NCBI GenBank assembly: GCA_942492875.1
Contig: OW818642.1
Coordinates: 2,478,606 to 2,542,605 of the forward strand
DNA: 64,000 nt
Origin: an uncultured Desulfuromonadaceae bacterium
Lineage (GTDB): Bacteria; Desulfobacterota; Desulfuromonadia; Geobacterales; Pseudopelobacteraceae
Reading direction: 5' to 3'
Both the position numbers and the translations under genes were made by a program. The notes below the pieces were generated by a model that saw only the letters and a program-made list of their open reading frames with translations, was not told the origin of the DNA and searched no databases. This document shows positions 1 through 34,342 of the stretch, piece by piece (the stretch's first letter is position 1; each line of letters starts with the position of its first letter).

Positions 1-225
1 CTAAGAGTTTAATCATGGTCTTTTTCATTACATCAACATTTTCTCCAGATGTTTTGTGTGAGTACTCAAGAATTAGGAGTATATCTATGAAAGTAATAGA
101 ATAATTAATGATATTTTTATTTGCTATGTTTATAAAAATACGCTTATTCAGCCTGTTGATACTCACTCCTGAATCATTCTTATCTCCCTGTATAGTGGAC
201 CCCAAAATCCGGACAATAGTTTAAG

Positions 226-549
226 GTGGTAGCCTGCAATCAAAAGGGGCAGGCAATGAGCGAAAAAAAGCGTAAAAGTTTCACCAGTCAGCACAAGGCA
301 AAAGTAGCGCTTGACGCGATCCGAGGTACCAAGACGTTAAATGAGATCGCCCAAGAGTACACTGTCCATCCGACTCAGGTTGGCGAATGGAAGAGAGAGC
401 TGCTGGCGCAGGCTTCCAGTATTTTCGAAATCAAGCGAGGCCCCAAGCCTGATGACCCTTCCTCCAGCCCTGAGCGTCTTTACTCTGAGATCGGGCGGTT
501 GAAGATGGAACTGGACTGGCTTAAAAAAAAGTCCGGGATCGGCCAGTAG
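226..549 (+). CDS. IS3-family transposase OrfA (HTH DNA-binding part)
   Basis: 107 aa. The KRKSFTSQHKAKVALDAIRGTKTLNEIAQEYTVHPTQVGEWKRE HTH followed by a leucine-zipper-like LKMELDWLKKK is typical of IS3 OrfA. It ends just after the A AAA AAA G slippery site (523-530). Confidence 0.85.
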   Translation: MVACNQKGQAMSEKKRKSFTSQHKAKVALDAIRGTKTLNEIAQEYTVHPTQVGEWKRELLAQASSIFEIKRGPKPDDPSSSPERLYSEIGRLKMELDWLKKKSGIGQ

Positions 550-566
550 CAGACCGCAGGCACTGG

Positions 567-1472
567 GTGAGTCTGTTGGATCCCATGACGCTAACCCGAC
601 AATGCGCGTTAGCTGGTGTCGCTCGTTCCACCGTTTATTCCTCACATTTGGTCGCCGAGCCAAATGAACTAGAATTGTTGTTACTGGCGTTGATTGATGC
701 CGAATATACGCTCCATCCGTTCTATGGTAGTCGCAAAATGGTCGTACATCTGGGCAAAGCAGGCTATCCGGTCAACCGGAAGCGGGTTCAACGACTGATG
801 AGGATCCTGGGATTGGCTGGTATGGCACCAGGCCCTAATACCAGCCGGCCTCACCCTCAGCACAAGATCTATCCGTACCTGCTCAGAGGCGTGAACGTGA
901 CACGACCGAATCAGGTGTGGAGTACCGATATCACTTATATTCGCCTGCCACGAGGCTTTGCGTATCTGGCAGCCGTAATCGACTGGTACTCACGTAAAGT
1001 GTTGGCGTGGCGATTGTCAAACTCACTCGATAGCGAATTTTGCGTTGACTGCCTGGAACAGTCGCTTCGGTCATACGGCACACCGGAGATCTTTAATACA
1101 GACCAAGGGTGTCAGTTCACGAGCGATGCTTTTACCGGCGTCCTCAAGTTACACGACATCGCTATCAGCATGGATGGTCGCGGTCGGGCATTGGATAATA
1201 TCTTTGTCGAACGGCTCTGGCGAAGCGTCAAGCATGAGGATATATACCTGAAAGGGTATGTCAGCATGCCGGGATTACAACTGGGCTTGACAGAATATTT
1301 TGAGTTCTACAATACCGAAAGGCCCCATCAATCTTTGGGTAACCGAACACCGATTCAGGTCTACCAAACAGCCAGCGGCGGCGGAGCAAGAATCGTAGAC
1401 AAATTCAAAGAACGAAAAACGTTTTTAGAGGTAGAACCAAAATCAAAGGCAGAAGCTACCACCTTAAACTAG
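567..1472 (+). CDS. IS3-family transposase OrfB (DDE integrase core); expressed as OrfAB fusion by -1 frameshift at 523-530
   Basis: 301 aa with DDE motifs (WSTDITYI ... DQGCQFTS ... ERLWRSVKHE). Lies in the -1 frame relative to orfA. The upstream part of that frame is open back to a TAA just before the A8 run. Confidence 0.85.
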   Translation: MSLLDPMTLTRQCALAGVARSTVYSSHLVAEPNELELLLLALIDAEYTLHPFYGSRKMVVHLGKAGYPVNRKRVQRLMRILGLAGMAPGPNTSRPHPQHKIYPYLLRGVNVTRPNQVWSTDITYIRLPRGFAYLAAVIDWYSRKVLAWRLSNSLDSEFCVDCLEQSLRSYGTPEIFNTDQGCQFTSDAFTGVLKLHDIAISMDGRGRALDNIFVERLWRSVKHEDIYLKGYVSMPGLQLGLTEYFEFYNTERPHQSLGNRTPIQVYQTASGGGARIVDKFKERKTFLEVEPKSKAEATTLN

Positions 1473-1802
1473 ACGGATTATTGTCTTGACCAAAGGGTCC
1501 ACTAAACTGCACATAGTTAAGCTTGTATGTCTCACCAAAAAAATCCACTTTCTTTTCTTCAAATATTTTAGATGATATTTTAACAATTGCTTTTTTACTC
1601 TTATCATCATATTCGATGGTTTTTGCAACGGGTAGATTTGGTTCAATATAAATAATAGTATGTTCTGTGTTATCAAGTTCAAACCTTTGCTTATTTAATT
1701 GTAGCTGATCAATAAGTTTAGGAGCATTTTCGGTATTCACATCTCTGATCGTATCAATTGTTCCCTGTATGAATTTGTAACGCCTCAGTCGGAATTGGAC
1801 TT

Positions 1803-2540
1803 TCAGGCCGCTTGATCTAATGGTAAGTCAGCTTCCCCTGAAGGCCTGATTTCAGAATAAGCTTGCTGTCGTTTTTGTTTTCTCAGTTCTCTGGCTTCTT
1901 CAAGTTTTCTGTCACGCTCTTTGAATATTTCCAGGTCTCTGCCATTCAGTTTGTCGGCGGGTGCAACGTAGCCAATTGCGCTGTGCAGTCTGACGGTGTT
2001 GTAGTGTTCGATGTACTTTTCTACTATCCGGCGAGCATCGTCAAGGGAAAGCGGGACACCCGGACGGATGCACTCAGTCTTGATGGTCTTGTGAAATCGT
2101 TCCAGCTTACCGTTTGACTGCGGATAGAACGGAGAAGTCCGTACATGCGTCATTCCGGAGATACGAATGAATTCCTTGAAATCCTTGGCAATAAACTGCG
2201 GCCCGTTGTCGGAAATGATCCGTGGTCGTGCAGCAGGGTATTTCTCTTTGGCTCGCTGCAGAATGATTTCAATATCTGGTTCCGTCATCTGCTCTCTGAT
2301 CTCCCAATGGATAATGGAACGACTGCAACCATCCAGGAAGCTGCACAGGTAGTAGAAAGTGCCACGGATGTTGAGGTAAGAAACATCCACGTGCCAGTGG
2401 TCATGAGGTAGCAGCGGCTGTACGAAACCGGTGCCTTTGAGAGACGGCTTCTGATTCCATTTGTTAAGCAAGCCTGCTTTTGAAAGAACGCGCCAGGTGC
2501 TGGAAGGGCTGACAGCCACAACATCCTGATCCAGCATCAT
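1803..2540 (-). CDS. IS3-family transposase OrfB of IS-B (DDE core; N-terminal part encoded upstream in another frame, about 2540-2800)
   Basis: DDE motifs: HVDVSY, ISDNGPQF, NGKLERFH. The ORF begins mid-domain, consistent with programmed frameshift expression. Confidence 0.8.
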   Translation of the reverse strand: MMLDQDVVAVSPSSTWRVLSKAGLLNKWNQKPSLKGTGFVQPLLPHDHWHVDVSYLNIRGTFYYLCSFLDGCSRSIIHWEIREQMTEPDIEIILQRAKEKYPAARPRIISDNGPQFIAKDFKEFIRISGMTHVRTSPFYPQSNGKLERFHKTIKTECIRPGVPLSLDDARRIVEKYIEHYNTVRLHSAIGYVAPADKLNGRDLEIFKERDRKLEEARELRKQKRQQAYSEIRPSGEADLPLDQAA

Positions 2541-2809
2541 AAAGGTTAGCCGCCGGTAGCCCTCAAGCGGGTTGTCTATGGCGAATTTGATGATGGCTTC
2601 CCGTTCCCAGAATGCCAGCCAGAAGTCACGAGGAATCGGGGCGTTGTGCTCGTTAGCCTTACCGTACCGCTCGATCCAGCTGTAAAATTTGCTCTTTGAG
2701 ACATCCAGCCAGGATATGAAGTGTTTCAGCGGAATCTCCGCTTTGTCGCTCCATTCTTTGGTGTAATCGACAACGGCATCGCGAATGTCATGGGGAACCC
2801 AGCCGCCTG

Positions 2810-3118
2810 TTAAAGCTCCCCAAGTTCTTTTTTTAGCTTGATGTGCTCCTCCATCAATTCTGAGAGCACTTCATGCTTCCTGATTAACTTGGCTTCGAGT
2901 TGCTGGATTTTGACTTCCTCAACACGCTTTTGAGGTTTGTCTTCACGGGTAAATGCTGCGGCTCCATTCTCGAAAAACTGCTTTTGCCAGATGTAGAAAA
3001 TTGTTGGCTGAAGCTGATGTTTGTCACACAGATCTGAAACAGGTACGTGCTCGACCAGATGACGCCGTAAAATAGAAACTTTCTCTTCGGGGGTGTAATT
3101 GTGACGTTTCTTTCGCAT
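2810..3118 (-). CDS. IS3-family transposase OrfA of IS-B
   Basis: 102 aa with an HTH and a coiled coil (EEVKIQQLEAKLIRKHEVLSELMEEHIKLKKEL), typical of IS3 OrfA. Confidence 0.8.
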   Translation of the reverse strand: MRKKRHNYTPEEKVSILRRHLVEHVPVSDLCDKHQLQPTIFYIWQKQFFENGAAAFTREDKPQKRVEEVKIQQLEAKLIRKHEVLSELMEEHIKLKKELGEL

Positions 3119-3165
3119 GGACTTTCCTCCGTTCGTGATGGTTTATCACAAACGAACCAAAAGTC

Positions 3166-4503
3166 CTATTCACGCTGAGCCAATACAAATTCTCTCTTAT
3201 CCTTGTCATCTTTTCCTTCAGCTAAGGACATCAAATTGTGTTGCAGCTTAACAAAAGGATCCTTTTCCTTTTTGCCCGAACCAATTGCTAAAAATGGCTC
3301 TGTCACTTTTTTAGCTTTTAAGACACCGTTGTCGTAAATAAATCGGAGTTCACTATTTAACGGTGAAATTATGTCTTGAACCTGATCTTTGAATGCTTTA
3401 AAGGCAGGAGATTTGGCAATGAAATGGTTCCTTGTCACATCCAGGAATTTTTTCATGTTCTTATGAGAAATCTCTGCAAAGATCCAATTCCTTAAAGGAT
3501 CGTGAATAATATGTTTACCGCCTTGATATGTTAGGTAATCCGACTCCTTTACCAAGACGTTTTTATTCCTAATCCACAATCCAGTCTCTTTTTCAGTATC
3601 TGCTGATTGGAGGTCACGGTTGGAATGGAGAATGAAATAACCGAAGTCAGGTGTAGTGTCACATTTGAATAACCGCAGTTTTGTGTCAGTAGTAAATCGA
3701 GGAAAATATTTTTTTAGAGGTTTAATATCAGTTTCTCGGCCTACGCCGAAGAAATATTCTACTGTAGGAAATAATGATTTGTTGGAATATAAGTCGAATA
3801 TTTTATCTTTATCAGCAGGCACTATATTTTTAAAAAACTGATCATCTGGATTAGGTTCAAGCGGTATATATTTTCTCAAATTGTTTTCGAATTGCGGTGT
3901 AAGGATTTCCTCAATGTCTTCCTCATATACACCTTCGATAATGATTTCCGTAAATGAGTTATAATTTCCTATATGTTTCGAAATTGTTTTCTTACTTAAT
4001 ATACTTAACGAATCACGGATATTAATGTTATGACCAGATGTAAGTTTAAAGAGTTTCTCTATTAAACTTAGACTTTTTCCTTCAGTTTCTTCGCTAAACA
4101 AAGTGCTTGATTCGACTACTAGCTGGACTAAGCCTTTTAACCCTTTAGGTTTAGTTATAATGGTTACTTTTTTTCCTAATTTAAAAATAGACATTAGACC
4201 CAAGCCGAAGTGGGAATATGCATTCTCGTCGGCCCTAGATAAACCATAACCAATGCTAGTTAGAACTTCTCTAAACCGCCCCTCGCTAATACCATTGCCA
4301 TTATCGAACAAACTTAAGTATGGTACTTGCTGGCCTTTGACATCTTTATTGCCAAAAAATAAAATGCACTTGTCCGCATGATTGTCCAAAGAATTTGATA
4401 TGGCCTCTCTAATCTTCATTGAGGTTGAGGAGTATACCGAGTTAGCTACGGTGGATAATATCCCTGCTTTTACATCGATTTTGAGAGCACTAGGTTTAGT
4501 CAT
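3166..4503 (-). CDS. GHKL/Bergerat-fold ATPase (Hsp90/MutL/MORC-like N-terminal ATP-binding domain) with about 300-aa uncharacterised C-terminal region
   Basis: 445 aa. N-box-like EAISNSLDNHADK, G1 box DNGNGI, G2-like GLGLMS. Very AT-rich. Its start ATG overlaps the stop of the upstream rSAM gene (ATGACTAA at 4496-4503). Its last codon and stop fall inside the IS-B terminus, so the native C-terminus may extend about 13 codons into 1754-1790 (inference). Confidence 0.65.
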   Translation of the reverse strand: MTKPSALKIDVKAGILSTVANSVYSSTSMKIREAISNSLDNHADKCILFFGNKDVKGQQVPYLSLFDNGNGISEGRFREVLTSIGYGLSRADENAYSHFGLGLMSIFKLGKKVTIITKPKGLKGLVQLVVESSTLFSEETEGKSLSLIEKLFKLTSGHNINIRDSLSILSKKTISKHIGNYNSFTEIIIEGVYEEDIEEILTPQFENNLRKYIPLEPNPDDQFFKNIVPADKDKIFDLYSNKSLFPTVEYFFGVGRETDIKPLKKYFPRFTTDTKLRLFKCDTTPDFGYFILHSNRDLQSADTEKETGLWIRNKNVLVKESDYLTYQGGKHIIHDPLRNWIFAEISHKNMKKFLDVTRNHFIAKSPAFKAFKDQVQDIISPLNSELRFIYDNGVLKAKKVTEPFLAIGSGKKEKDPFVKLQHNLMSLAEGKDDKDKREFVLAQRE

Positions 4504-5414
4504 TCTTTACCTTCCTCTTCAAAGATTTATCGTATTCGTATATAGCATAAAGCTTACTTTCAAATTCCTTAAAAGTGGAACCATATATATCCAAAAATGA
4601 TGTTCTGCTTTTAGTTATCATTCCGCCACGATAGTAAAACAGCAAGCTAAGTTTTAGAGCTCTTAATAAATAGTTATTCCAATGTTCGTTTGGATAGGCT
4701 CTTTTATTATTGGTTGCTTCCCTGTAGCCCATTGGGAACACCAGTACACCTTCCTGATTTAGAAGATTTATTTTATAGAAAAACTCTTCAGGCGAGTCTT
4801 TAAAATTATATAATACATAACTAGAAATTTCTTTGTTTGTATACTTTTTTGCCAATCGTATGGCTTTTAATACATGCTTCTCGTTGGACAAATTATCAAA
4901 TGCAAATCTTATTGGATCTAGGTTTATTTTTGCTAGTAGTTCAGCCTTTTCTTTCGTATACAGCCGTGCATCAATCCCTTGGTTGAAATCTACCCGTTTT
5001 CCAATCTGAACCAGCTTGTCAACATCACTTTTTAAGTTTGGTGATGCCAGCCAGTTGTTATCCCAAAATGTAAGCAGGGGAAGGCTTGGCGAAACATCTT
5101 TTTCCCAATCGTTTTTCACAAAAAAATCCGGCTCCAGAGTTTTAACTGCACAAAATTTACATTTTCTGATGCAGCCTCTTGAAGTAAAACTTATGGAACT
5201 CTTTAATTTTCTATTGAAATTTACGGAATAATCCGGGGGATAATATTCAGCGTCATTTAGAAGCCCTACATGAGGTTGTATCCCTGTGGATTCGAAAATC
5301 TTTTCAGGCATCAGGGAAGCCGCAATTCCTCCAATCGAAATTTCTGAAGAAGGATATTTCCATTGATAATAGGAAGCCGTATAGTGGACCCCAAAATCCG
5401 GACAATAGTTTAAG

Positions 5415-5855
5415 GTGGTAGCCTGCAATCAAAAGGGGCAGGCAATGAGCGAAAAAAAGCGTAAAAGTTTCACCAGTCAGCACAAGGCAAAAGTAGCGCT
5501 TGACGCGATCCGAGGTACCAAGACGTTAAATGAGATCGCCCAAGAGTACACTGTCCATCCGACTCAGGTTGGCGAATGGAAGAGAGAGCTGCTGGCGCAG
5601 GCTTCCAGTATTTTCGAAATCAAGCGAGGCCCCAAGCCTGATGACCCTTCCTCCAGCCCTGAGCGTCTTTACTCTGAGATCGGGCGGTTGAAGATGGAAC
5701 TGGACTGGCTTAAAAAAAAGTCCGGATCGGCCATTAGCAGACCGCAGGCACTGGGTGAGTCTGTTGGATCCCATGACGCTAACCCGACAATGCGCGTTAG
5801 CTGGTGTCGCTCGTTCCACCGTTTATTCCTCACATTTGGTCGCCGAGCCAAATGA
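5415..5855 (+). CDS. IS-A copy 2 transposase OrfA with frameshifted, extended C-terminus
   Basis: Identical to orfA of copy 1 up to ...LKKKSG. It then reads through in an altered frame because of the 1-bp deletion. Confidence 0.7.
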   Translation: MVACNQKGQAMSEKKRKSFTSQHKAKVALDAIRGTKTLNEIAQEYTVHPTQVGEWKRELLAQASSIFEIKRGPKPDDPSSSPERLYSEIGRLKMELDWLKKKSGSAISRPQALGESVGSHDANPTMRVSWCRSFHRLFLTFGRRAK

Positions 5856-6660
5856 ACTAGAATTGTTGTTACTGGCGTTGATTGATGCCGAATATACGCT
5901 CCATCCGTTCTATGGTAGTCGCAAAATGGTCGTACATCTGGGCAAAGCAGGCTATCCGGTCAACCGGAAGCGGGTTCAACGACTGATGAGGATCCTGGGA
6001 TTGGCTGGTATGGCACCAGGCCCTAATACCAGCCGGCCTCACCCTCAGCACAAGATCTATCCGTACCTGCTCAGAGGCGTGAACGTGACACGACCGAATC
6101 AGGTGTGGAGTACCGATATCACTTATATTCGCCTGCCACGAGGCTTTGCGTATCTGGCAGCCGTAATCGACTGGTACTCACGTAAAGTGTTGGCGTGGCG
6201 ATTGTCAAACTCACTCGATAGCGAATTTTGCGTTGACTGCCTGGAACAGTCGCTTCGGTCATACGGCACACCGGAGATCTTTAATACAGACCAAGGGTGT
6301 CAGTTCACGAGCGATGCTTTTACCGGCGTCCTCAAGTTACACGACATCGCTATCAGCATGGATGGTCGCGGTCGGGCATTGGATAATATCTTTGTCGAAC
6401 GGCTCTGGCGAAGCGTCAAGCATGAGGATATATACCTGAAAGGGTATGTCAGCATGCCGGGATTACAACTGGGCTTGACAGAATATTTTGAGTTCTACAA
6501 TACCGAAAGGCCCCATCAATCTTTGGGTAACCGAACACCGATTCAGGTCTACCAAACAGCCAGCGGCGGCGGAGCAAGAATCGTAGACAAATTCAAAGAA
6601 CGAAAAACGTTTTTAGAGGTAGAACCAAAATCAAAGGCAGAAGCTACCACCTTAAACTAG
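5755..6660 (+). CDS. IS-A copy 2 transposase OrfB (DDE)
   Basis: Identical protein to 567..1472. Confidence 0.8.
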   Translation: MSLLDPMTLTRQCALAGVARSTVYSSHLVAEPNELELLLLALIDAEYTLHPFYGSRKMVVHLGKAGYPVNRKRVQRLMRILGLAGMAPGPNTSRPHPQHKIYPYLLRGVNVTRPNQVWSTDITYIRLPRGFAYLAAVIDWYSRKVLAWRLSNSLDSEFCVDCLEQSLRSYGTPEIFNTDQGCQFTSDAFTGVLKLHDIAISMDGRGRALDNIFVERLWRSVKHEDIYLKGYVSMPGLQLGLTEYFEFYNTERPHQSLGNRTPIQVYQTASGGGARIVDKFKERKTFLEVEPKSKAEATTLN

Positions 6661-6929
6661 ACGGATTATTGTCTTGACCAAAGGGTCCACTAAACCGTTT
6701 CAATGACCTTATCTAGATCCCAGGTGAATAAGGTGGTGATAAATATCTTATCTGGCTCTCTTAAGCCATCTGGATTGCCAATTCCAACCTGACTATATAT
6801 TTCACACCCACGATGTTTATCCTTAAGCATAGATGAAATCTTCATTAAGCCCAACGGAGGATATACTGTCTTTGCAATTGGTTCTACCAACAAAAATTGT
6901 TTTGAGCTTTCATACATTACATACATCTC

Positions 6930-7193
6930 CTATTCTTTATCACTTAGTACATTAGGCCATTTTCTAACAATTCGCAGCACTTCCTGATCGTCTAATAGAT
7001 TTAGCATATTCATAAAGGCAGCGATTGCTAATGGAGCTTTCCCCGATCGCTCATATTCAATGTATGTTCTGTGCTTGACGCCAATCCGCGCCGCCATTTC
7101 CTTTTGAGATATCCGACACGCCTCTCTTGCCGCAATCAAATGATGAGCTTCACAAACTAAGCTACTGAAATTATAGGATTTATCTTTTTGCAT
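6930..7193 (-). CDS. XRE-family helix-turn-helix transcriptional regulator
   Basis: 87 aa with an HTH (ISQKEMAARIGVKHRTYIEYERSGK). AT-rich. Its stop codon lies 4 bp before the rSAM start codon, so it is translationally coupled and the first gene of the operon. Confidence 0.6.
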   Translation of the reverse strand: MQKDKSYNFSSLVCEAHHLIAAREACRISQKEMAARIGVKHRTYIEYERSGKAPLAIAAFMNMLNLLDDQEVLRIVRKWPNVLSDKE

Positions 7194-7207
7194 CGGGCTA
7201 TATTAGA

Positions 7208-7300
7208 TTGATTTTATTTGCATTACAATAAAAAAGATATTTTTTGATTTTATTTGTATTAAATATACATTTTTATGCATATTTTAAGCTTAAATATGCA
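7208..7300. promoter_or_regulatory. Candidate operator/promoter region of the XRE–rSAM–ATPase operon: two 18-bp direct repeats plus a near-palindrome
   Basis: TTGATTTTATTTGCATTA (7208-7225) and TTGATTTTATTTGTATTA (7244-7261) match 17/18, with starts 36 bp apart. Near-palindrome TGCATATTT(T)AAGCTTAAATATGCA at 7276-7300. All lie in the AT-rich leader 15-110 bp upstream of the XRE start. Confidence 0.4.
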
Positions 7301-7799
7301 AGAATTTACCGCCAGTCAATTTGGGTTTTTTACTGTCTGTGTCCACTATGTATGGCGCCTGTACGATTTTGGGATTGGGATGAAGGGCGTTATGGAGAAG
7401 GCAAACAAGGGTTCTGCCATGGCAGCAGCTGGATTAACCTGAGAGTAGAAAGACTGCAGGGCTGTTGGAGCCGGGTAAGAGATGAGGGGGGAACGAGGTC
7501 ATGGCAACTGTTGATGTTGCTGGATCAGTTCGCCATGCGTGACAATGGAAAGTTCGCAAATAATCGCTGTACTCATTCCCAGTTTATGCACCCTTTTTGA
7601 ACTCTGGGCAATATTATGCTTCCTCAATAACGCGGGTAGCCAACTAAATCACGTCAAATTCCTGTCCTCCGTGCCGTTTTATGCTTCTTTTGGTTACCAG
7701 CTTATGGTTCAAGACACAAAATATTGTGCGTGCGGGGCTGGATATTTCTGGTATATTCGAAAAATAGAAATTATGGGATCAGCACGGGAGGACACAGGG

Positions 7800-10307
7800 A
7801 TGGTTCAAAAAAAGAAACGCACAATAATTAACTCACCGGGTTTGACGGAGTTGCCGCCACTGTCGCTGGACGCATCCGGCCTGGTCCACGATTACCGGCG
7901 GTATTTCACCTATACCCTCGGCCAGAATAAATACTGCCATTCGGTCAAATATTTTTACAAGGCTCTGGCGCTGACGGTTCGCGACCGGTTGATGGAACGA
8001 TGGAAGATGACCCGTTACACGTACGTCGAGTCAGGATGCAAGCATGGTTATTATCTGTCGCTTGAATTTCTGATGGGGCGGGCTCTCGGTAATGCCATGC
8101 TGAATATCGGCATAACCGATGCCGCTACAGAGGCGATGGGGCAGCTCGGCATCAAGCTGGAAGAGCTGGCCGAGGCCGAGGTTGATGCCGGTTTGGGCAA
8201 CGGCGGACTCGGGCGTTTGGCGGCCTGCTTTCTCGACAGTTGTGCCACCCTGCAGTTGCCGGTTATGGGGTATGGTCTTCGCTATGAATACGGCATGTTT
8301 CGCCAGCGGATCGTGGATGGGCGGCAGATTGAGGAGCCTGACCACTGGTTGCTGGACGGTAACCCCTGGGAACAGGAGCGCCCGGAATATACCCAGCGCG
8401 TCCGTTTCGGCGGCCGCTGTGAACACTTTACTACCGAGAGTGGCGGGTCGCGTGTCCGCTGGGTCGACAGCCGGGATGTGCTGGCGGTCCCCTACGATAT
8501 TCCGATCCCCGGGTATCGTAATGGCACCGTCAACACGCTGCGCCTCTGGAAAGCGGCTGCCACCGATGTCTTTGATCTCGGTGAATTCAATGCCGGCGAC
8601 TATGCCGAATCGGTCGCCACCAAGAATGAAGCCGAAAATATCACGATGGTGCTTTACCCGAACGATGCCAGCGAAAACGGTAAAGTCCTCCGTTTGCGCC
8701 AGCAGTATTTTCTCGCCTCCGCCAGTCTGCAGGACGTTGTTGAACGCTGGGTAATGGTGCGCAAGGGGGACTTCAGTAAATTTGCAGTCAGTAACTGTTT
8801 TCAGCTGAACGACACCCATCCAAGCTGTGCCGTGCCCGAGCTGATGCGGATTCTGATAGACGAACAGGGGATGGGGTGGGATCAGGCCTGGGGGATTACC
8901 TGTCAGACGATGGCGTATACCAATCATACCCTGCTTCCGGAAGCACTGGAAAAATGGCCTTTACCGCTTTTTGGCCAACTTCTGCCCCGTATTCTGGAGA
9001 TAATTCTGGAGATCAACGCCCGCTTCATCTTCGAGGTTTCCGGCCGCTGGCCAGGTGATAACGAGCGGATCAGGCGCATGTCCATCATTGAGGAGGGTGC
9101 GGTTCCCCAGGTGCGGATGGCGTATCTGGCGATAGTCGGGAGTTTTTCCGTCAACGGTGTCGCTGCGCTGCACTCTCAACTCCTTACCCAGGGGCTGTTC
9201 CGCGATTTTTATGAACTCTGGCCGGCCAAGTTCAACAACAAGACCAACGGTGTGACGCCGCGCCGCTGGATCGCCAACAGCAACCCCGGATTAAGTCGAA
9301 TGGTGAGCGAAAAGATCGGCGAGGGGTGGGTGGGCGACCTGCAGCAGATCAACAGGATTGCCGCTCTTGCGGATGATCCGCAGTTCCGGCAGCAGTGGCA
9401 TGATGTCAAGCAGGGGAACAAGGAGCGTCTTGCGGCTCTTGTGCAGGCCCAGTGTGATGTTGCATTCAAGCCTGAGGCTCTTTTCGATGTCCAGGTCAAG
9501 AGGATCCATGAGTATAAGAGGCAGCTCCTCAACATACTGCACGTCATCCACCTGTATGATCGTATCAAGCGCGGCGATACTGCCGGTTGGACCGATCGCT
9601 GCGTGCTGATCGGCGGGAAGGCTGCGCCCGGGTATGTCATGGCCAAGCTGATCATCAAGCTGGTCAACAATGTGGCGCAGGTGATAAATGCCGATCCGAT
9701 GGTCGGGGACAGGCTCAAGGTGGCATTTCTCCCCAATTACAGCGTGACCGCCATGGAGGTTATCTGTCCCGGCACCGACCTGTCTGAGCAGTTGTCAACG
9801 GCCGGCAAGGAAGCTTCAGGGACCGGTAACATGAAGTTCATGATGAATGGCGCGGTGACCATCGGCACCCTGGATGGTGCCAATATCGAGATCCGTGAGG
9901 AGGTTGGCGACGACAATTTCTTCATGTTCGGCCTGACGAGCGAAGAGGTCGATGAACTGCGTCAGCGCTACGATCCGCAGGGGACCATCAACCACGACGA
10001 CGATTTGCAGCGGGTTATGAACCTCCTCCGCTGCGGTCACTTCAGCCTGTTTGAGGGGGGGCTCTTCAATCCGATCATCGACGCGATCTGCTCGCCTCAT
10101 GATCCCTGGATGGTTGCTGCAGACTTCCGCAGCTTCATTGATGCTCAGCAGCGGGTCTCGGTGGCGTATCAGGATCGGGAGCGCTGGGTCCGCATGAGCA
10201 TCATGAACACCGCTTGCAGCGGCAAGTTCTCCACCGATCGTACGATCAGCGAATACAACGAGGATATCTGGCACCTGAAGGCAACATCGATCTGTGATGG
10301 GGAATAA
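7800..10307 (+). CDS. glgP: Glycogen/alpha-glucan phosphorylase
   Basis: Contains the PLP-lysine signature EASGTGNMKFMMNG and the conserved GT35 core. The likely start is the ATG at 7800 after GGGAGG. The track ORF from 7539 adds an implausible hydrophobic extension. Confidence 0.9.
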   Translation: MVQKKKRTIINSPGLTELPPLSLDASGLVHDYRRYFTYTLGQNKYCHSVKYFYKALALTVRDRLMERWKMTRYTYVESGCKHGYYLSLEFLMGRALGNAMLNIGITDAATEAMGQLGIKLEELAEAEVDAGLGNGGLGRLAACFLDSCATLQLPVMGYGLRYEYGMFRQRIVDGRQIEEPDHWLLDGNPWEQERPEYTQRVRFGGRCEHFTTESGGSRVRWVDSRDVLAVPYDIPIPGYRNGTVNTLRLWKAAATDVFDLGEFNAGDYAESVATKNEAENITMVLYPNDASENGKVLRLRQQYFLASASLQDVVERWVMVRKGDFSKFAVSNCFQLNDTHPSCAVPELMRILIDEQGMGWDQAWGITCQTMAYTNHTLLPEALEKWPLPLFGQLLPRILEIILEINARFIFEVSGRWPGDNERIRRMSIIEEGAVPQVRMAYLAIVGSFSVNGVAALHSQLLTQGLFRDFYELWPAKFNNKTNGVTPRRWIANSNPGLSRMVSEKIGEGWVGDLQQINRIAALADDPQFRQQWHDVKQGNKERLAALVQAQCDVAFKPEALFDVQVKRIHEYKRQLLNILHVIHLYDRIKRGDTAGWTDRCVLIGGKAAPGYVMAKLIIKLVNNVAQVINADPMVGDRLKVAFLPNYSVTAMEVICPGTDLSEQLSTAGKEASGTGNMKFMMNGAVTIGTLDGANIEIREEVGDDNFFMFGLTSEEVDELRQRYDPQGTINHDDDLQRVMNLLRCGHFSLFEGGLFNPIIDAICSPHDPWMVAADFRSFIDAQQRVSVAYQDRERWVRMSIMNTACSGKFSTDRTISEYNEDIWHLKATSICDGE

Positions 10308-30335: not shown

Positions 30336-30745
30336 CTCTGCACCTCCTTGCTTGTGATGTTTCCACCATAACGAAGTTGGCTCATTATTTTGATGATCTG
30401 GGTCAAGAATTGAGAGTCTCTCTGAAATGGTTGGTAATTATGTTTATGCCGACAATGAGAAGTTCCTTCTTAATTAAAATTTAAAATAATGGCAAAAGCG
30501 GGTAAAATCTGCTATGGCAGACATGCTGGCTCACTACGTTCCGCTATGCCAACGTGGTAGTTTGGCTCGTTCAGGGAACAACGTGGTGTTAACAATACGA
30601 CTTGATACATTCTGTACGGGTACCTGCATGGTCTCTGTGTGGTCTGTTTGGCGGTGACTGCCGCCACGGTGTTCCGGAATGGCGATATATTTTTAATCGT
30701 TTGTACATATCACAGTGAAATATGACAGCACCCAAGGAGGAACAC

Positions 30746-33256
30746 ATGAACGATCCCGCAGCTCTGTTTATCTGGATTGGCAACCATTATTACTACCTTT
30801 TTGCCTTCGCCATTCTCGTCGTTCTTATCTGGAACTCGGTGGTTATTGTCAGCGGCAACGAGATAGCCCTGATTGAACGGCGCTGGTTCGGCAGCAAGAT
30901 GCCTCAGGGGCGCGTTGTGGCGTTGGGGAACGAGGTCGGCATCCAGGCGCGCACCCTGGGGCCCGGCCTGCACTTCTTGATTCCGTTCATCTACAAGGCC
31001 ACCAAGAGCGTCTTCACCGAGATTCTGGAAAATGAAATCGGCCTGATAGAGTCGGTGGACGGCTCATCGATCCCCTCCGGGCGGATCTTTGCCGCGGTCG
31101 TGGCAGGGCACAACTCCTTCCAGGACGGTGAAGCTTTCATCAAGAACGGCGGCCAGAAGGGGCCGCAGATCGATGTGCTCCCTCCGGGCAAGTACCGTAT
31201 CAACCCCTACCTGTTCAAGCTGACCATGGGGAGCGTCACCGAGATCAAGGACTTTGAGATCGGCATCGTCGAGTCGGTTGACGGCGTTGCTATCGCGGAA
31301 GGCAAGATCTTTGCCCAGGCGGTGGAGGGGCACTCCTCGTTCCAGAACGGTGAAGCATTCATCACCAACGGCGGCCAGAAGGGGCCGCAGATCGAGATCA
31401 TCCCCCCCGGTAACTATCGCATCAACCCCTACCTGTTCAAGGTGACCAAAAGTTCGGCCACCAAGATCGGTGACGGCGAGATCGGCCTGGTCGAATCGGC
31501 CGACGGCGCGGCGATTCCGGCGGGACGCATCTTTGCCACGGTGGTGCCCGGTCATAACGCCTTCCAGTCGGGCCAGGATTTCATCAGGAACGGCGGCCAG
31601 AAAGGGCCGCAGACCGAGATCCTGCCGCCCGGTGTCTACCGTATCCACCCGAACCTGTTCAAGATCACCAAGGCTGCCGCCGTGATCATCGCCAAGGGTG
31701 AAGTCGGCATGGTCACCGCCCAGGACGGTGGGGCGATCCCCATGGGGCGGCTGCTGGCCCAGAGCGTGACGGGCCACTCCAATTACGAGAACGGCGAGGC
31801 CTTCCTGAAAAACGGCGGGCAGAAGGGGCCGCAGATTGACGTGCTGCTCCCCGGCACCTATCGTATCAACCTGAATCTGTTCCAGGTGCAGATTGCCCCC
31901 GCTGTGATCATCGAAGCCAACAAAATCGGTCTGGTTACCGCGCTGGACGGCATTCCGCTTCCAGAGCGGGAATACGTGGCTTCCCCGATCACCGGCCATA
32001 ACGATTACCAGGATGGTTCCGCCTTCCTCACCAAACAGGGGCAGCGCGGTCCGCAGTTGGATGTGCTGCGGCCCGGTACCTATTACATCAACCCGTTCAT
32101 GTTCAGTGTGGCCGTTGATGACGTTGCGGTCATCGAGCGCGGCCAGGTCGGGGTTATCGTCTCGAACGTGGGCGACGATCCGACGGCAGAGATGAAGAAG
32201 CGTCTCGGCTCGACCCAGGCCGGGGCCTCGGCGGAAGAGGGCAAGGAAAAGTACGTCGTACCCAAGGGATTTCGTGGCATCCAGGAGGAGGTGGCCGGCC
32301 CGGGGCGCTATTACCTCAACCGGCGGGCGTTCATGTGCTACATCATTGACACCACCAACATCACCATCGATTGGGACGACCAGGAAGACACCCGCTTCGA
32401 CCAGTTGACGGTCATCTCCAAGGACGGTTTCCCGATCCAGGTCGCCGTCAAGGTCGTTATACGCGTCCGCCCGGACCAGGCTCCCTATATGGTGGCCAAA
32501 GTTGGCTCCATCGATAACCTGATCCAGCACGTCATCCACCCGATGATTGACTCCTCCTTCCGCAACCAGGCTTCTACCGCTTCGGCCATGAACTTCTTGC
32601 AGAGTCGTTCGGAAGAGCAGACCAAGGCCGAAACCCGCGCCCGCGTCGATCTGGAAAAATATCATGTTGAGTGTGTGTCGGTGCTGATCTGTCAGATAAA
32701 ACTCCCTGAGGATCTGATGCAGACCCAGACGAAGCGGATAATCGCCGAGCAGCAGCAGGAGATGTACAAGATGGAGCAAAGATCACAGGCCGAGCGCACC
32801 GAGATGGAGAAGATGCGCGCCACGGCCGACCAGCAGCCGACTCTGGTTGCCTCGGAGATCGCCGTGAAGGTAGCGACTCAGAAGAAGACTGAGATGATCA
32901 CACTGGCCGAAGGTAATGCTGAATCAAAGGCGCTTGAGGGGATCGGTGAAGGGAAACGGCTCAAGGCCATCGGCGACGGTGAGGCATCAAAGATTGCGGC
33001 AATAGGTGAAGCAACCGCCCAGGCTTACAACAAGCAGCAGGAGGCCATCGGTGAAGAGGCGATCAAGCAGATCAAGATCGTGGAGCTGATTGCCGCCGCC
33101 ATCCAGAATGGCAATATTAAGATCGTGCCGGATGTGTTGGTGACTGGAGGCGGGACGGCTGGTGACGGGTTGATGGGGCAGTTGTCGCGGTTGTTGCCGG
33201 GAGTGGATTTGAATGGGTTGATACGGAAATCAGGAGATCAGGCGGAGAAACAGTAA
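30746..33256 (+). CDS. SPFH/flotillin-family membrane protein with five tandem 74-aa repeats of the N-terminal SPFH segment
   Basis: N-terminal TM. SPFH start motif GPGLHFLIPF. C-terminal flotillin-like coiled coil and EA-rich region. Start at the ATG at 30746, after AAGGAGG. Confidence 0.7.
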   Translation: MNDPAALFIWIGNHYYYLFAFAILVVLIWNSVVIVSGNEIALIERRWFGSKMPQGRVVALGNEVGIQARTLGPGLHFLIPFIYKATKSVFTEILENEIGLIESVDGSSIPSGRIFAAVVAGHNSFQDGEAFIKNGGQKGPQIDVLPPGKYRINPYLFKLTMGSVTEIKDFEIGIVESVDGVAIAEGKIFAQAVEGHSSFQNGEAFITNGGQKGPQIEIIPPGNYRINPYLFKVTKSSATKIGDGEIGLVESADGAAIPAGRIFATVVPGHNAFQSGQDFIRNGGQKGPQTEILPPGVYRIHPNLFKITKAAAVIIAKGEVGMVTAQDGGAIPMGRLLAQSVTGHSNYENGEAFLKNGGQKGPQIDVLLPGTYRINLNLFQVQIAPAVIIEANKIGLVTALDGIPLPEREYVASPITGHNDYQDGSAFLTKQGQRGPQLDVLRPGTYYINPFMFSVAVDDVAVIERGQVGVIVSNVGDDPTAEMKKRLGSTQAGASAEEGKEKYVVPKGFRGIQEEVAGPGRYYLNRRAFMCYIIDTTNITIDWDDQEDTRFDQLTVISKDGFPIQVAVKVVIRVRPDQAPYMVAKVGSIDNLIQHVIHPMIDSSFRNQASTASAMNFLQSRSEEQTKAETRARVDLEKYHVECVSVLICQIKLPEDLMQTQTKRIIAEQQQEMYKMEQRSQAERTEMEKMRATADQQPTLVASEIAVKVATQKKTEMITLAEGNAESKALEGIGEGKRLKAIGDGEASKIAAIGEATAQAYNKQQEAIGEEAIKQIKIVELIAAAIQNGNIKIVPDVLVTGGGTAGDGLMGQLSRLLPGVDLNGLIRKSGDQAEKQ
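31034..32143 (+). repeat. Five in-frame tandem 222-bp (74-aa) repeats inside the flotillin-like gene
   Basis: Consensus E-IG-VES-DG-AIP-GRIFA-VV-GHN-FQ-GEAF--NGGQKGPQ---LPPG-YRINP-LFK-T. About 50-60% aa identity between units, so the duplications are ancient and diverged. Degenerate half-units flank the array. Confidence 0.8.
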
Positions 33257-33558: not shown

Positions 33559-33801
33559 ATGACAACGCTATCAGCAACAGAAGCGAGAAAATCCCTTTAT
33601 AACCTTGTCGATGATGTCGCTTTATCACATGACCCGATTCAGATTGTTGGCAAACGGCATTCAGCAGTTCTCATCTCAGAAGACGATTGGCGTGCTATTC
33701 AGGAAACATTGTATCTCACTTCAATTCCCGGCATGCGGGAATCCATCAAGAAAGGTCTCAAAACCCCGGTATCCGAGTGTAGTGAGGAGCTTGCATGGTA
33801 A
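33559..33801 (+). CDS. yefM: Type II antitoxin, Phd/YefM family
   Basis: MTTLSATEARKSLYNLVDDV...VLISEDDWRAIQETLYL. 7-bp overlap with the toxin gene. Confidence 0.75.
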   Translation: MTTLSATEARKSLYNLVDDVALSHDPIQIVGKRHSAVLISEDDWRAIQETLYLTSIPGMRESIKKGLKTPVSECSEELAW

Positions 33802-34061
33802 ACTGGCAACTTGTTTTTACCAGGCAAGCGCAAAAAGATGCAAAAAAGATCGCACACTCCGGGTTAAAGTCACAGGCCGAACAATTACTGGAAATTATCA
33901 AAGAAAATCCCTTCAAAAATCCCCCACCATATGAAAAACTTGTAGGCGATCTGGCAGGTGCTTATTCCCGTAGAATCAACATTCAGCATCGACTGGTTTA
34001 TGAGGTTTTGGACAATGTAAAGACTATAAAGATTATCCGAATGTGGACGCATTACGAATAG
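33795..34061 (+). CDS. yoeB: Type II toxin, YoeB/Txe (RelE superfamily)
   Basis: ...AYSRRINIQHRLVYEV...IIRMWTHYE is characteristic of YoeB. Confidence 0.75.
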   Translation: MVNWQLVFTRQAQKDAKKIAHSGLKSQAEQLLEIIKENPFKNPPPYEKLVGDLAGAYSRRINIQHRLVYEVLDNVKTIKIIRMWTHYE

Positions 34062-34129
34062 CCAAAGCTGATCAGCCGTTTGTCGCTATGTAGAAAGCCA
34101 TGCCCGTAAAAATTCGACAGGAGAACACC

Positions 34130-34342
34130 ATGAACATAACGTATATTTTACGTCAATCAGATAGCCTTGTTTTTAATACCGATAGTGAAACAATTGCCTT
34201 TACGGCCAGGAGATTAGCGGATGTAAAACGCAGGGCATTTCGTAAGCAGTATCATGAAGATTCCAATCTACGGCTTGAGGATGAGAACGGTAATGTTCTC
34301 AGCATCAAGCGCAGCGGTTTCAAATGGGAAGATAAGCTATAA
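34130..34342 (+). CDS. Hypothetical small protein in AT-rich islet
   Basis: ORF only; no recognisable motif. Confidence 0.25.
   Translation: MNITYILRQSDSLVFNTDSETIAFTARRLADVKRRAFRKQYHEDSNLRLEDENGNVLSIKRSGFKWEDKL

Follow-up and report, generated by a model that had tools for sequence, protein, structure and literature searches.

A membrane-anchored bacterial SPFH protein with a tandem array of small beta-domains predicted to adopt the fold of vault repeats

The window, a 64,000-nucleotide stretch of contig OW818642.1 (assembly GCA_942492875.1) from an uncultured Desulfuromonadaceae bacterium, contains a plus-strand open reading frame (ORF) with two possible starts (30722/30746-33256). This gene encodes an SPFH protein, probably a flotillin/YqiK-like one. 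It is preceded by a gap of about 400 bp and by divergent hemerythrin and PAS genes, and followed by a YefM/YoeB pair and pcnB. A strong Shine-Dalgarno sequence, AAGGAGG (30734..30740, + strand, found by reading the sequence), lies 6 nt upstream of the ATG at 30746, and the product is therefore most likely 836 amino acids long (coding sequence 30746..33256, stop codon included, taken from the ORF list and the orthologs). Ahead of the alpha/beta SPFH core of this protein, the small N-terminal beta-domain is present as seven amplified copies in tandem. Residue numbers below are counted from ATG 30746, and all parts of the protein are encoded on the plus strand.

Comparison of the 836-residue protein with itself gave 210 identities at an offset of 74 residues, 148 at an offset of 148, and 98 at an offset of 222, while the best offset in 500 shuffled sequences gave an average of 67.9 (standard deviation 3.4, maximum 82). 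The array consists of five units of 74 residues, U1 to U5, at residues 93-462 (31022-32131), without a single insertion or deletion. An earlier reading of this DNA from its letters and ORFs (the sequence-only reading) had described five 74-residue units in perfect register, and this was upheld; it had placed them at residues 105-474, counted from the upstream ATG at 30722, a register that is 4 residues out of phase, which is immaterial. Its figure of 50-60% identity between units was roughly right, but the measured range was wider, 36-66% for protein (mean ~51%), with 55-74% for DNA. Self-comparison and a hidden Markov model (HMM) of the unit defined U1 (residues 93-166, 31022..31243), U2 (167-240, 31244..31465), and U3 (241-314, 31466..31687), the latter two also through comparison of orthologs. 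At the DNA level Tandem Repeats Finder recognised only U1-U3, the youngest three (period 222, 2.7 copies, 75% matches, 31084-31671). U4 (315-388, 31688..31909) and U5 (389-462, 31910..32131) were both modelled with a predicted local distance difference test score (pLDDT) above 94. The invariant residues of the unit are G14, F39, G44, G47, P48, Q49, G56, and F65, and each unit carries a conserved loop, GH..FQ.GEAF..NGGQKGPQ.

Degenerate units flank the array on both sides, as had been proposed. The unit HMM matched the downstream flank (residues 463-531), and HHalign of the unit profile matched both residues 36-91 (probability 88%, E 3e-6) and residues 463-532 (probability 87%, E 4e-6), so there are seven homologous small domains, U0 to U6. 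The first, U0 (residues 36-92, 30851..31021), holds the canonical SPFH motif GPGLHFLIPF, which aligns with PGLHFKIPF of HflC, and lacks the 17-residue conserved loop. The last, U6 (residues 463-536, 32132..32353), has an insert of about 30 residues, shows the same modelled strand pattern as the other units, and runs into the Band_7 match, making up the beta-part at the N-terminus of the SPFH domain proper. Since the two flanking segments, the SPFH start and the beginning of the core, both match the unit profile, the proposal that the repeat derives from the first SPFH beta-segment held. The SPFH alpha/beta core follows at residues 537-654 (32354..32707). It is succeeded by the first coiled coil (CC1), a long helix at residues 655-730 (32708..32935; helices 655-695 and 697-730 in AlphaFold) that is the predicted cage wall. 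Beyond this (32936..33253) lie the Ala/Glu-rich helices of the second coiled coil (CC2, residues 736-787), assigned from low-confidence AlphaFold secondary structure, and a C-terminal tail (788-836, IKIVPD..GGG), read from the sequence, the would-be cap.

Searched with a profile of 29 units, a set of 1.84 billion representative proteins gave 1,346 clusters (50% identity) at E ≤ 1e-3 and 169 at E ≤ 1e-30, so the repeat is not rare. Among the best 150 matches, the number of full units ranged from 2, the most frequent count, to 13, and protein length reached 1,802 residues; all complete proteins among them were built in the same way, with a hydrophobic N-terminus, the units, and the SPFH core. 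Close relatives hold 5, 4, or 3 units, and the wider family 2-14, so that repeat number does vary among homologs. The unit is thus common, but it is not an annotated domain repeat: Pfam, NCBIfam, and PADLOC gave no significant match to the repeat region and contain no model of the unit, PADLOC returned zero matches at E ≤ 0.1 for the whole protein or the repeat region, and a sequence search of the PDB with the unit profile found chance-level matches only. Databases label these proteins merely "SPFH domain-containing".

Relatives were found in 253 reference genomes, and intact orthologs with the same five units were present at 61 of 81 reference loci. Copies of the five-unit form share 86-98% of their residues across Geobacteraceae, Syntrophia, Verrucomicrobiota, Sericytochromatia, Ca. 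Electronema, Paludibacterium, and others. The closest ortholog (98%) is that of GWC2_53_11, also of the Geobacteraceae, and comparisons of Geobacteraceae with Verrucomicrobiota, Sericytochromatia, Ca. Electronema, Syntrophia, and Paludibacterium fell at 86-89% protein identity (loci L005-L065). Orthologous coding sequences shared 77-90% of their nucleotides as against 86-98% of their amino acids, which is evidence of strong purifying selection, and the presence of so similar a form in several phyla requires horizontal transfer. These comparisons indicate that a single gene has moved across phyla under strong purifying selection. They also bear on an explanation as an artefact, in which the array stems from faulty assembly or from slippage, or the gene is a pseudogene in decay whose segments were duplicated recently. 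The tandem repeats as such, and nothing further, speak for it; the intact orthologs and matching genomes, the divergence of the units in DNA, and the selection on the coding sequence refute it, and we give it practically no chance.

Analysis of 60 five-unit orthologs showed that the same unit was 85-91% identical across species, while different units were 37-70% identical. The array is therefore old and position-specific, without homogenisation, and each position has its own conserved identity; the sequence-only reading had likewise called it ancient and maintained rather than a product of recent slippage. Three-unit forms consist of the U1, U4, and U5 types. The U4 type occurs in all three-, four-, and five-unit forms, and the U5 type is universal in the family. 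U1-U3 arose by duplication of one N-terminal unit type, U2 being a young paralog of U1 and U3.

The window protein matched PF01145 (Band_7) with 84.4 bits against a cut-off of 23.6 (residues 513-681), and it begins with an uncharged hydrophobic anchor at residues 4-38 (30755..30859), assigned from hydropathy and flanking charges as a single span or hairpin and not a signal peptide. The description of the product as an SPFH protein with an N-terminal membrane segment was therefore correct. No flotillin-specific Pfam or NCBIfam model was matched by the window protein, and its C-terminal tail is presumably similar to the YqiK/flotillin C-terminus. JGI labels on orthologs are inconsistent, naming either YqiK or HflC. 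HflC gave a weak sequence match at residues 607-704, and the HflC family model TIGR01932 scored 24 bits, far under the cut-off of 134.4. The gene is single, with no hflK-hflC pairing, paralog, or conserved neighbour. An identity as an HflK/C-type protease regulator was rejected on this score, on the unpaired gene, and on the cytoplasmic topology described next.

No lysine or arginine precedes the anchor of the window protein and three follow it, and there is no basic n-region. An uncharged hydrophobic segment N-terminal to the SPFH domain was found family-wide. Lysines and arginines within 15 residues of the anchor averaged 0.45 on the N-terminal side and 3.3 on the C-terminal side, with the C-terminal count higher in 201 of 211 proteins. 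Members of the wider family carry further domains fused after the coiled coil: VWA (P0121-P0123, P0128, P0169, P0222, P0248), STAND NTPase (P0216, P0224, P0230), CHAT protease (P0231), and PP2C phosphatase (P0236), and the giants with 11-14 units all have a VWA domain at the C-terminal end. From the charge excess together with these fusions, the body of the protein most probably lies in the cytoplasm behind its N-terminal anchor, as in YqiK-type flotillins. The fusions also suggest a role in signalling or conflict systems for the wider family. Partners of the vault offer a curious parallel: PARP4 has a VWA domain and TEP1 a NACHT domain.

A periplasmic or membrane-proximal scaffold had been the suggestion of the sequence-only reading, and in its fuller form the anchor would be N-in, like that of HflK/C, with the repeats projecting into the periplasm and serving there as a scaffold, or ruler, between the membranes. 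HflK/C, which is periplasmic, is indeed the best PDB match of the window protein at the sequence level, some relatives bear VWA or RTX-type domains, which are often extracellular, and relatives with many units gave weak, sub-threshold matches to CshA adhesin repeats. Against this stand the distribution of charges around the anchor, the lack of a signal-peptide n-region, the low HflC family score, and the STAND NTPase, CHAT, and PP2C domains fused after the coiled coil in relatives, which need the cytoplasm. We consider a periplasmic or envelope spacer very improbable. An adhesin-like surface repeat was also tried and rejected: the CshA_repeat matches were sub-threshold and no single stretch passed.

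A full-length AlphaFold model, based on a shallow alignment, had a pLDDT of 61, with confident strands and poor loops; it contained helices at residues 4-31 and long helices at residues 655-787. This weak model was replaced by one of residues 315-700 (U4, U5, U6, the SPFH core, and the start of CC1), built on an alignment of 81 diverse relatives, which reached a pLDDT of 94.6 and a predicted template modelling score of 0.81. In this model the units are small beta-domains, and the conserved loop of each contains one short helix. In the predicted structure, tandem small beta-domains with the major vault protein (MVP) repeat fold stand directly before the SPFH shoulder, and the SPFH alpha/beta fold is followed by the long CC1 helix. 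Foldseek alignments to MVP spanned 460-595 columns, compared to ~240 for other SPFH cages, and the full-length model gave longer alignments, of 243 residues with 3gf5_A and of 365 with full MVP. MVP was the only other multi-domain structural match, and no other beta-repeat protein appeared among the top Foldseek matches. The units are thus predicted to adopt an MVP-repeat type fold and to be strung together as in MVP. In the confident model they run head to tail and superpose on the R-repeats of MVP. The sequence-only reading had known of no SPFH protein built in this way; the eukaryotic MVP, which makes up the vault shell, is one, with beta-repeats, SPFH shoulder, and coiled coil.

An ECOD-based study of September 2026 assigned the one beta-domain at the N-terminus of ordinary archaeal SPFH proteins to the homology group of the MVP repeat, and in its account MVP shares their architecture but has the repeat in multiple copies (PMC13607799). 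The window protein fits this picture, as a bacterial, membrane-anchored lineage in which the same kind of domain has been multiplied from the protein's own first segment. All solved SPFH proteins form closed rings through SPFH and CC1 contacts (PMC12624060, PMC13100048). On these grounds the reading that we regard as probable, with reservations, is a cage of the flotillin/YqiK kind in which MVP-like domains add height to the wall, that is, a half-vault on a membrane. By analogy with the solved cages, protomers would assemble side by side through the SPFH domain and CC1 into a closed ring capped by the C-termini. A CC1 of ~76 residues, entered into the published regression of subunit number on CC1 length (y = 0.1782x + 10.22; PMC12624060), gives ~24 subunits. 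With the beta-domains stacked, the low dome usual for such proteins would become a tall barrel, set on the inner membrane at its cytoplasmic face, a half-vault in which the membrane takes the place of the second half. The number of units would then set the height of the barrel and so the volume enclosed above a fenced-off patch of membrane. A self-sufficient gene without a conserved partner would most likely supply a compartmentalising scaffold for membrane-associated clients.

The proposed likeness to MVP lies in the predicted beta-repeats, SPFH shoulder, and long helix, which follow in the same order. MVP differs from the window protein in being soluble and in forming a closed particle of two halves, paired by a waist-forming N-terminus in whose place the window protein has its membrane anchor. 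The cap helix of MVP is ~155 residues long, and the shorter CC1 of the window protein implies fewer subunits. By the HHalign comparison the units demonstrably go back to the first SPFH segment of this very family, so they may have been amplified independently of those in MVP.

Several results weigh against a vault-like cage. There is no detectable sequence similarity to MVP: the Pfam Vault models (PF01505, PF17794-6) and MVP_shoulder (PF11978) gave no match at E ≤ 1, the unit HMM scored ~0 bits on MVP, and HHalign against an alignment of 18 tetrapod MVPs gave E ~0.1, although the low diversity of that profile (effective sequence number 1.7) makes this negative comparison an absence of evidence at limited sensitivity. 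The strongly conserved loop of the 74-residue unit has no counterpart in the ~55-residue repeats of MVP. The low pLDDT of the full-length model leaves the orientation of the seven domains to one another uncertain, and the number of subunits is a rough estimate, 18-30, since confidence is low in the region from which the CC1 boundaries were taken. The formation of a cage is itself argued from analogy alone.

This last point applies to any oligomer of the window protein, and it favours a second explanation, in which the beta-domains are not a cage wall and instead form a rigid stalk or modules that bind a ligand (lipid, protein, or nucleic acid). They would then keep a small oligomer or an ordinary SPFH ring at a distance from the membrane, or recruit clients through the conserved loop. 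The most conserved feature of every unit is the very loop that MVP repeats lack, and invariant residues in such a loop suggest a specific interaction surface, though Gly/Pro-rich invariant positions are equally expected from a purely structural turn. Further evidence against a stalk or binding module comes from MVP, the only solved protein with the same order of domains, in which the repeats make lateral contacts in the wall, and from the closed rings of every solved SPFH protein (PMC12624060, PMC13100048). We judge this explanation unlikely, if still a serious one. In the half-vault cage that we prefer, the loop may serve in lateral contacts or in the binding of a ligand.

Other known SPFH proteins lack such an array. 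YqiK/FloT (COG2268), which the charge-derived topology and predicted helices of the window protein would fit, has a single N-terminal beta-segment, and the cages of HflK/HflC, QmcA, stomatin, prohibitin, and erlin have one N-terminal beta-domain each, in contrast to seven here. Bacterial cages of the HflK/HflC and QmcA types also have dedicated partners, FtsH and NfeD/YbbJ, whereas no conserved partner accompanies the window gene. A few bacterial MVP-like proteins are known (PMC3762200, Daly 2013; bioRxiv 10.1101/872010, Sokolskyi 2019), along with an Asgard form with five repeats (PMC12962969) and compact archaeal proteins with a repeat and an SPFH domain (PMC13607799). These share one or more MVP-type repeats, a Band 7/SPFH domain, and a helical tail with the family described here. 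They were found through similarity to eukaryotic MVP, in sequence or as best structural match, and their descriptions mention no N-terminal anchor. The present family, which is far more widespread, has no Vault or MVP_shoulder match, is anchored, and has 2-14 units; it is by the published descriptions only that the two groups are set apart.

In the literature, no account was found of bacterial SPFH proteins that are membrane-anchored and carry MVP-like domains in variable number. MVP domains are called "unique to the vault" in recent papers, and the vault itself the odd one out among membrane-anchored SPFH cages (PMC13100048, PMC12624060). The two would be linked by a common bacterial family that is anchored and also bears such domains in a stack of variable size, and units visibly derived from the first SPFH segment offer a concrete route for the evolution of vault-type walls. 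The range in unit number is a natural series on whether repeat number sets cage height, and members in culturable Geomonas, Ralstonia, Rhizobium, Streptomyces clavuligerus, and Clostridium make the idea directly testable. A bolder proposal, which we think rather improbable, is that the family is the membrane-bound source of vault-type architecture, or its closest surviving sister, and that the MVP lineage lost the anchor and paired two halves. Were it true, amplification of the SPFH beta-domain would first have given tall cages standing on membranes, with the eukaryotic and archaeal MVP as a derivative, and the vault partners PARP4 (VWA) and TEP1 (NACHT) would be anticipated by the VWA and STAND-NTPase domains that relatives carry at the C-terminus.

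The gene stands alone. Across the 81 loci, no flanking gene family was common to more than 7, and no conserved flanking DNA was found that might mark the boundary of a mobile element, as DNA similarity ended at the borders of the coding sequence. In Geomonas sp. Red32 (locus L003, 1-4928) the ortholog is preceded on the same strand by an M48 peptidase, a DUF5684 protein, a rhomboid protease, and a 131-residue ORF; this association with membrane proteases is not conserved, an M48-like neighbour being present at only 7 of the 81 loci. The non-coding gap upstream of the gene in the window (30340-30745) is unusually long and AT-rich, and in a Nitrospirota genome of the Dissulfurispiraceae (L001, 4954-6001) the gap before the ortholog is ~1 kb. 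A consensus scan of the gap in the window gave a weak sigma-70-like promoter candidate, TTTAAA-17-TAAAAT (30480..30508, + strand). The upstream sequence, including this region, was not conserved between the genomes compared, and Rfam had no match in the gene or the sequence on either side, leaving the gap without a known RNA element. An antisense ORF of 571 residues (31064-32779, - strand) lies wholly within the coding sequence; overlapping ORFs occur in all orthologous loci because the coding sequence is conserved, and it was rejected as a shadow ORF.

Immediately downstream of the gene, a YefM-type antitoxin gene (33559-33801) overlaps a YoeB/ParE-type toxin gene (33795-34061), and an orphan ORF of 80 residues without a family match (34100-34342) lies between this pair and pcnB. 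More distant repeat-bearing relatives were found on 85 plasmids, including those of Rhizobium, Streptomyces, Clostridium, and Ralstonia. A 691-residue member is encoded on the conjugative MOBP/MPF_F plasmid pB1901 of Ralstonia insidiosa (L085, 120446-122521), directly downstream of a PRTRC (ParB-related/ThiF-related) cassette. Relatives also occur in Ackermannviridae phages of Vibrio, as in vB_VchM_Kuja (L086, 70008-71651), where the product is annotated only as a "putative membrane protein", and in an uncultured megaphage of 642 kb (LR756502.1, 343979-344716).

Elsewhere in the window, two near-identical direct copies of an IS3-family element (190-6690, transposase ORFs 567-1472 and 5755-6660; DNA repeats 100% and 98% identical) bracket a block of 41-45% GC in a genome of ~55% GC, within the low-GC region 1-8000. 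Between the copies lie another rve transposase and, on the minus strand, a HATPase_c_3 protein (3166-4503) and a weak radical-SAM-like ORF (4496-5428), and the block looks like a composite-transposon island.

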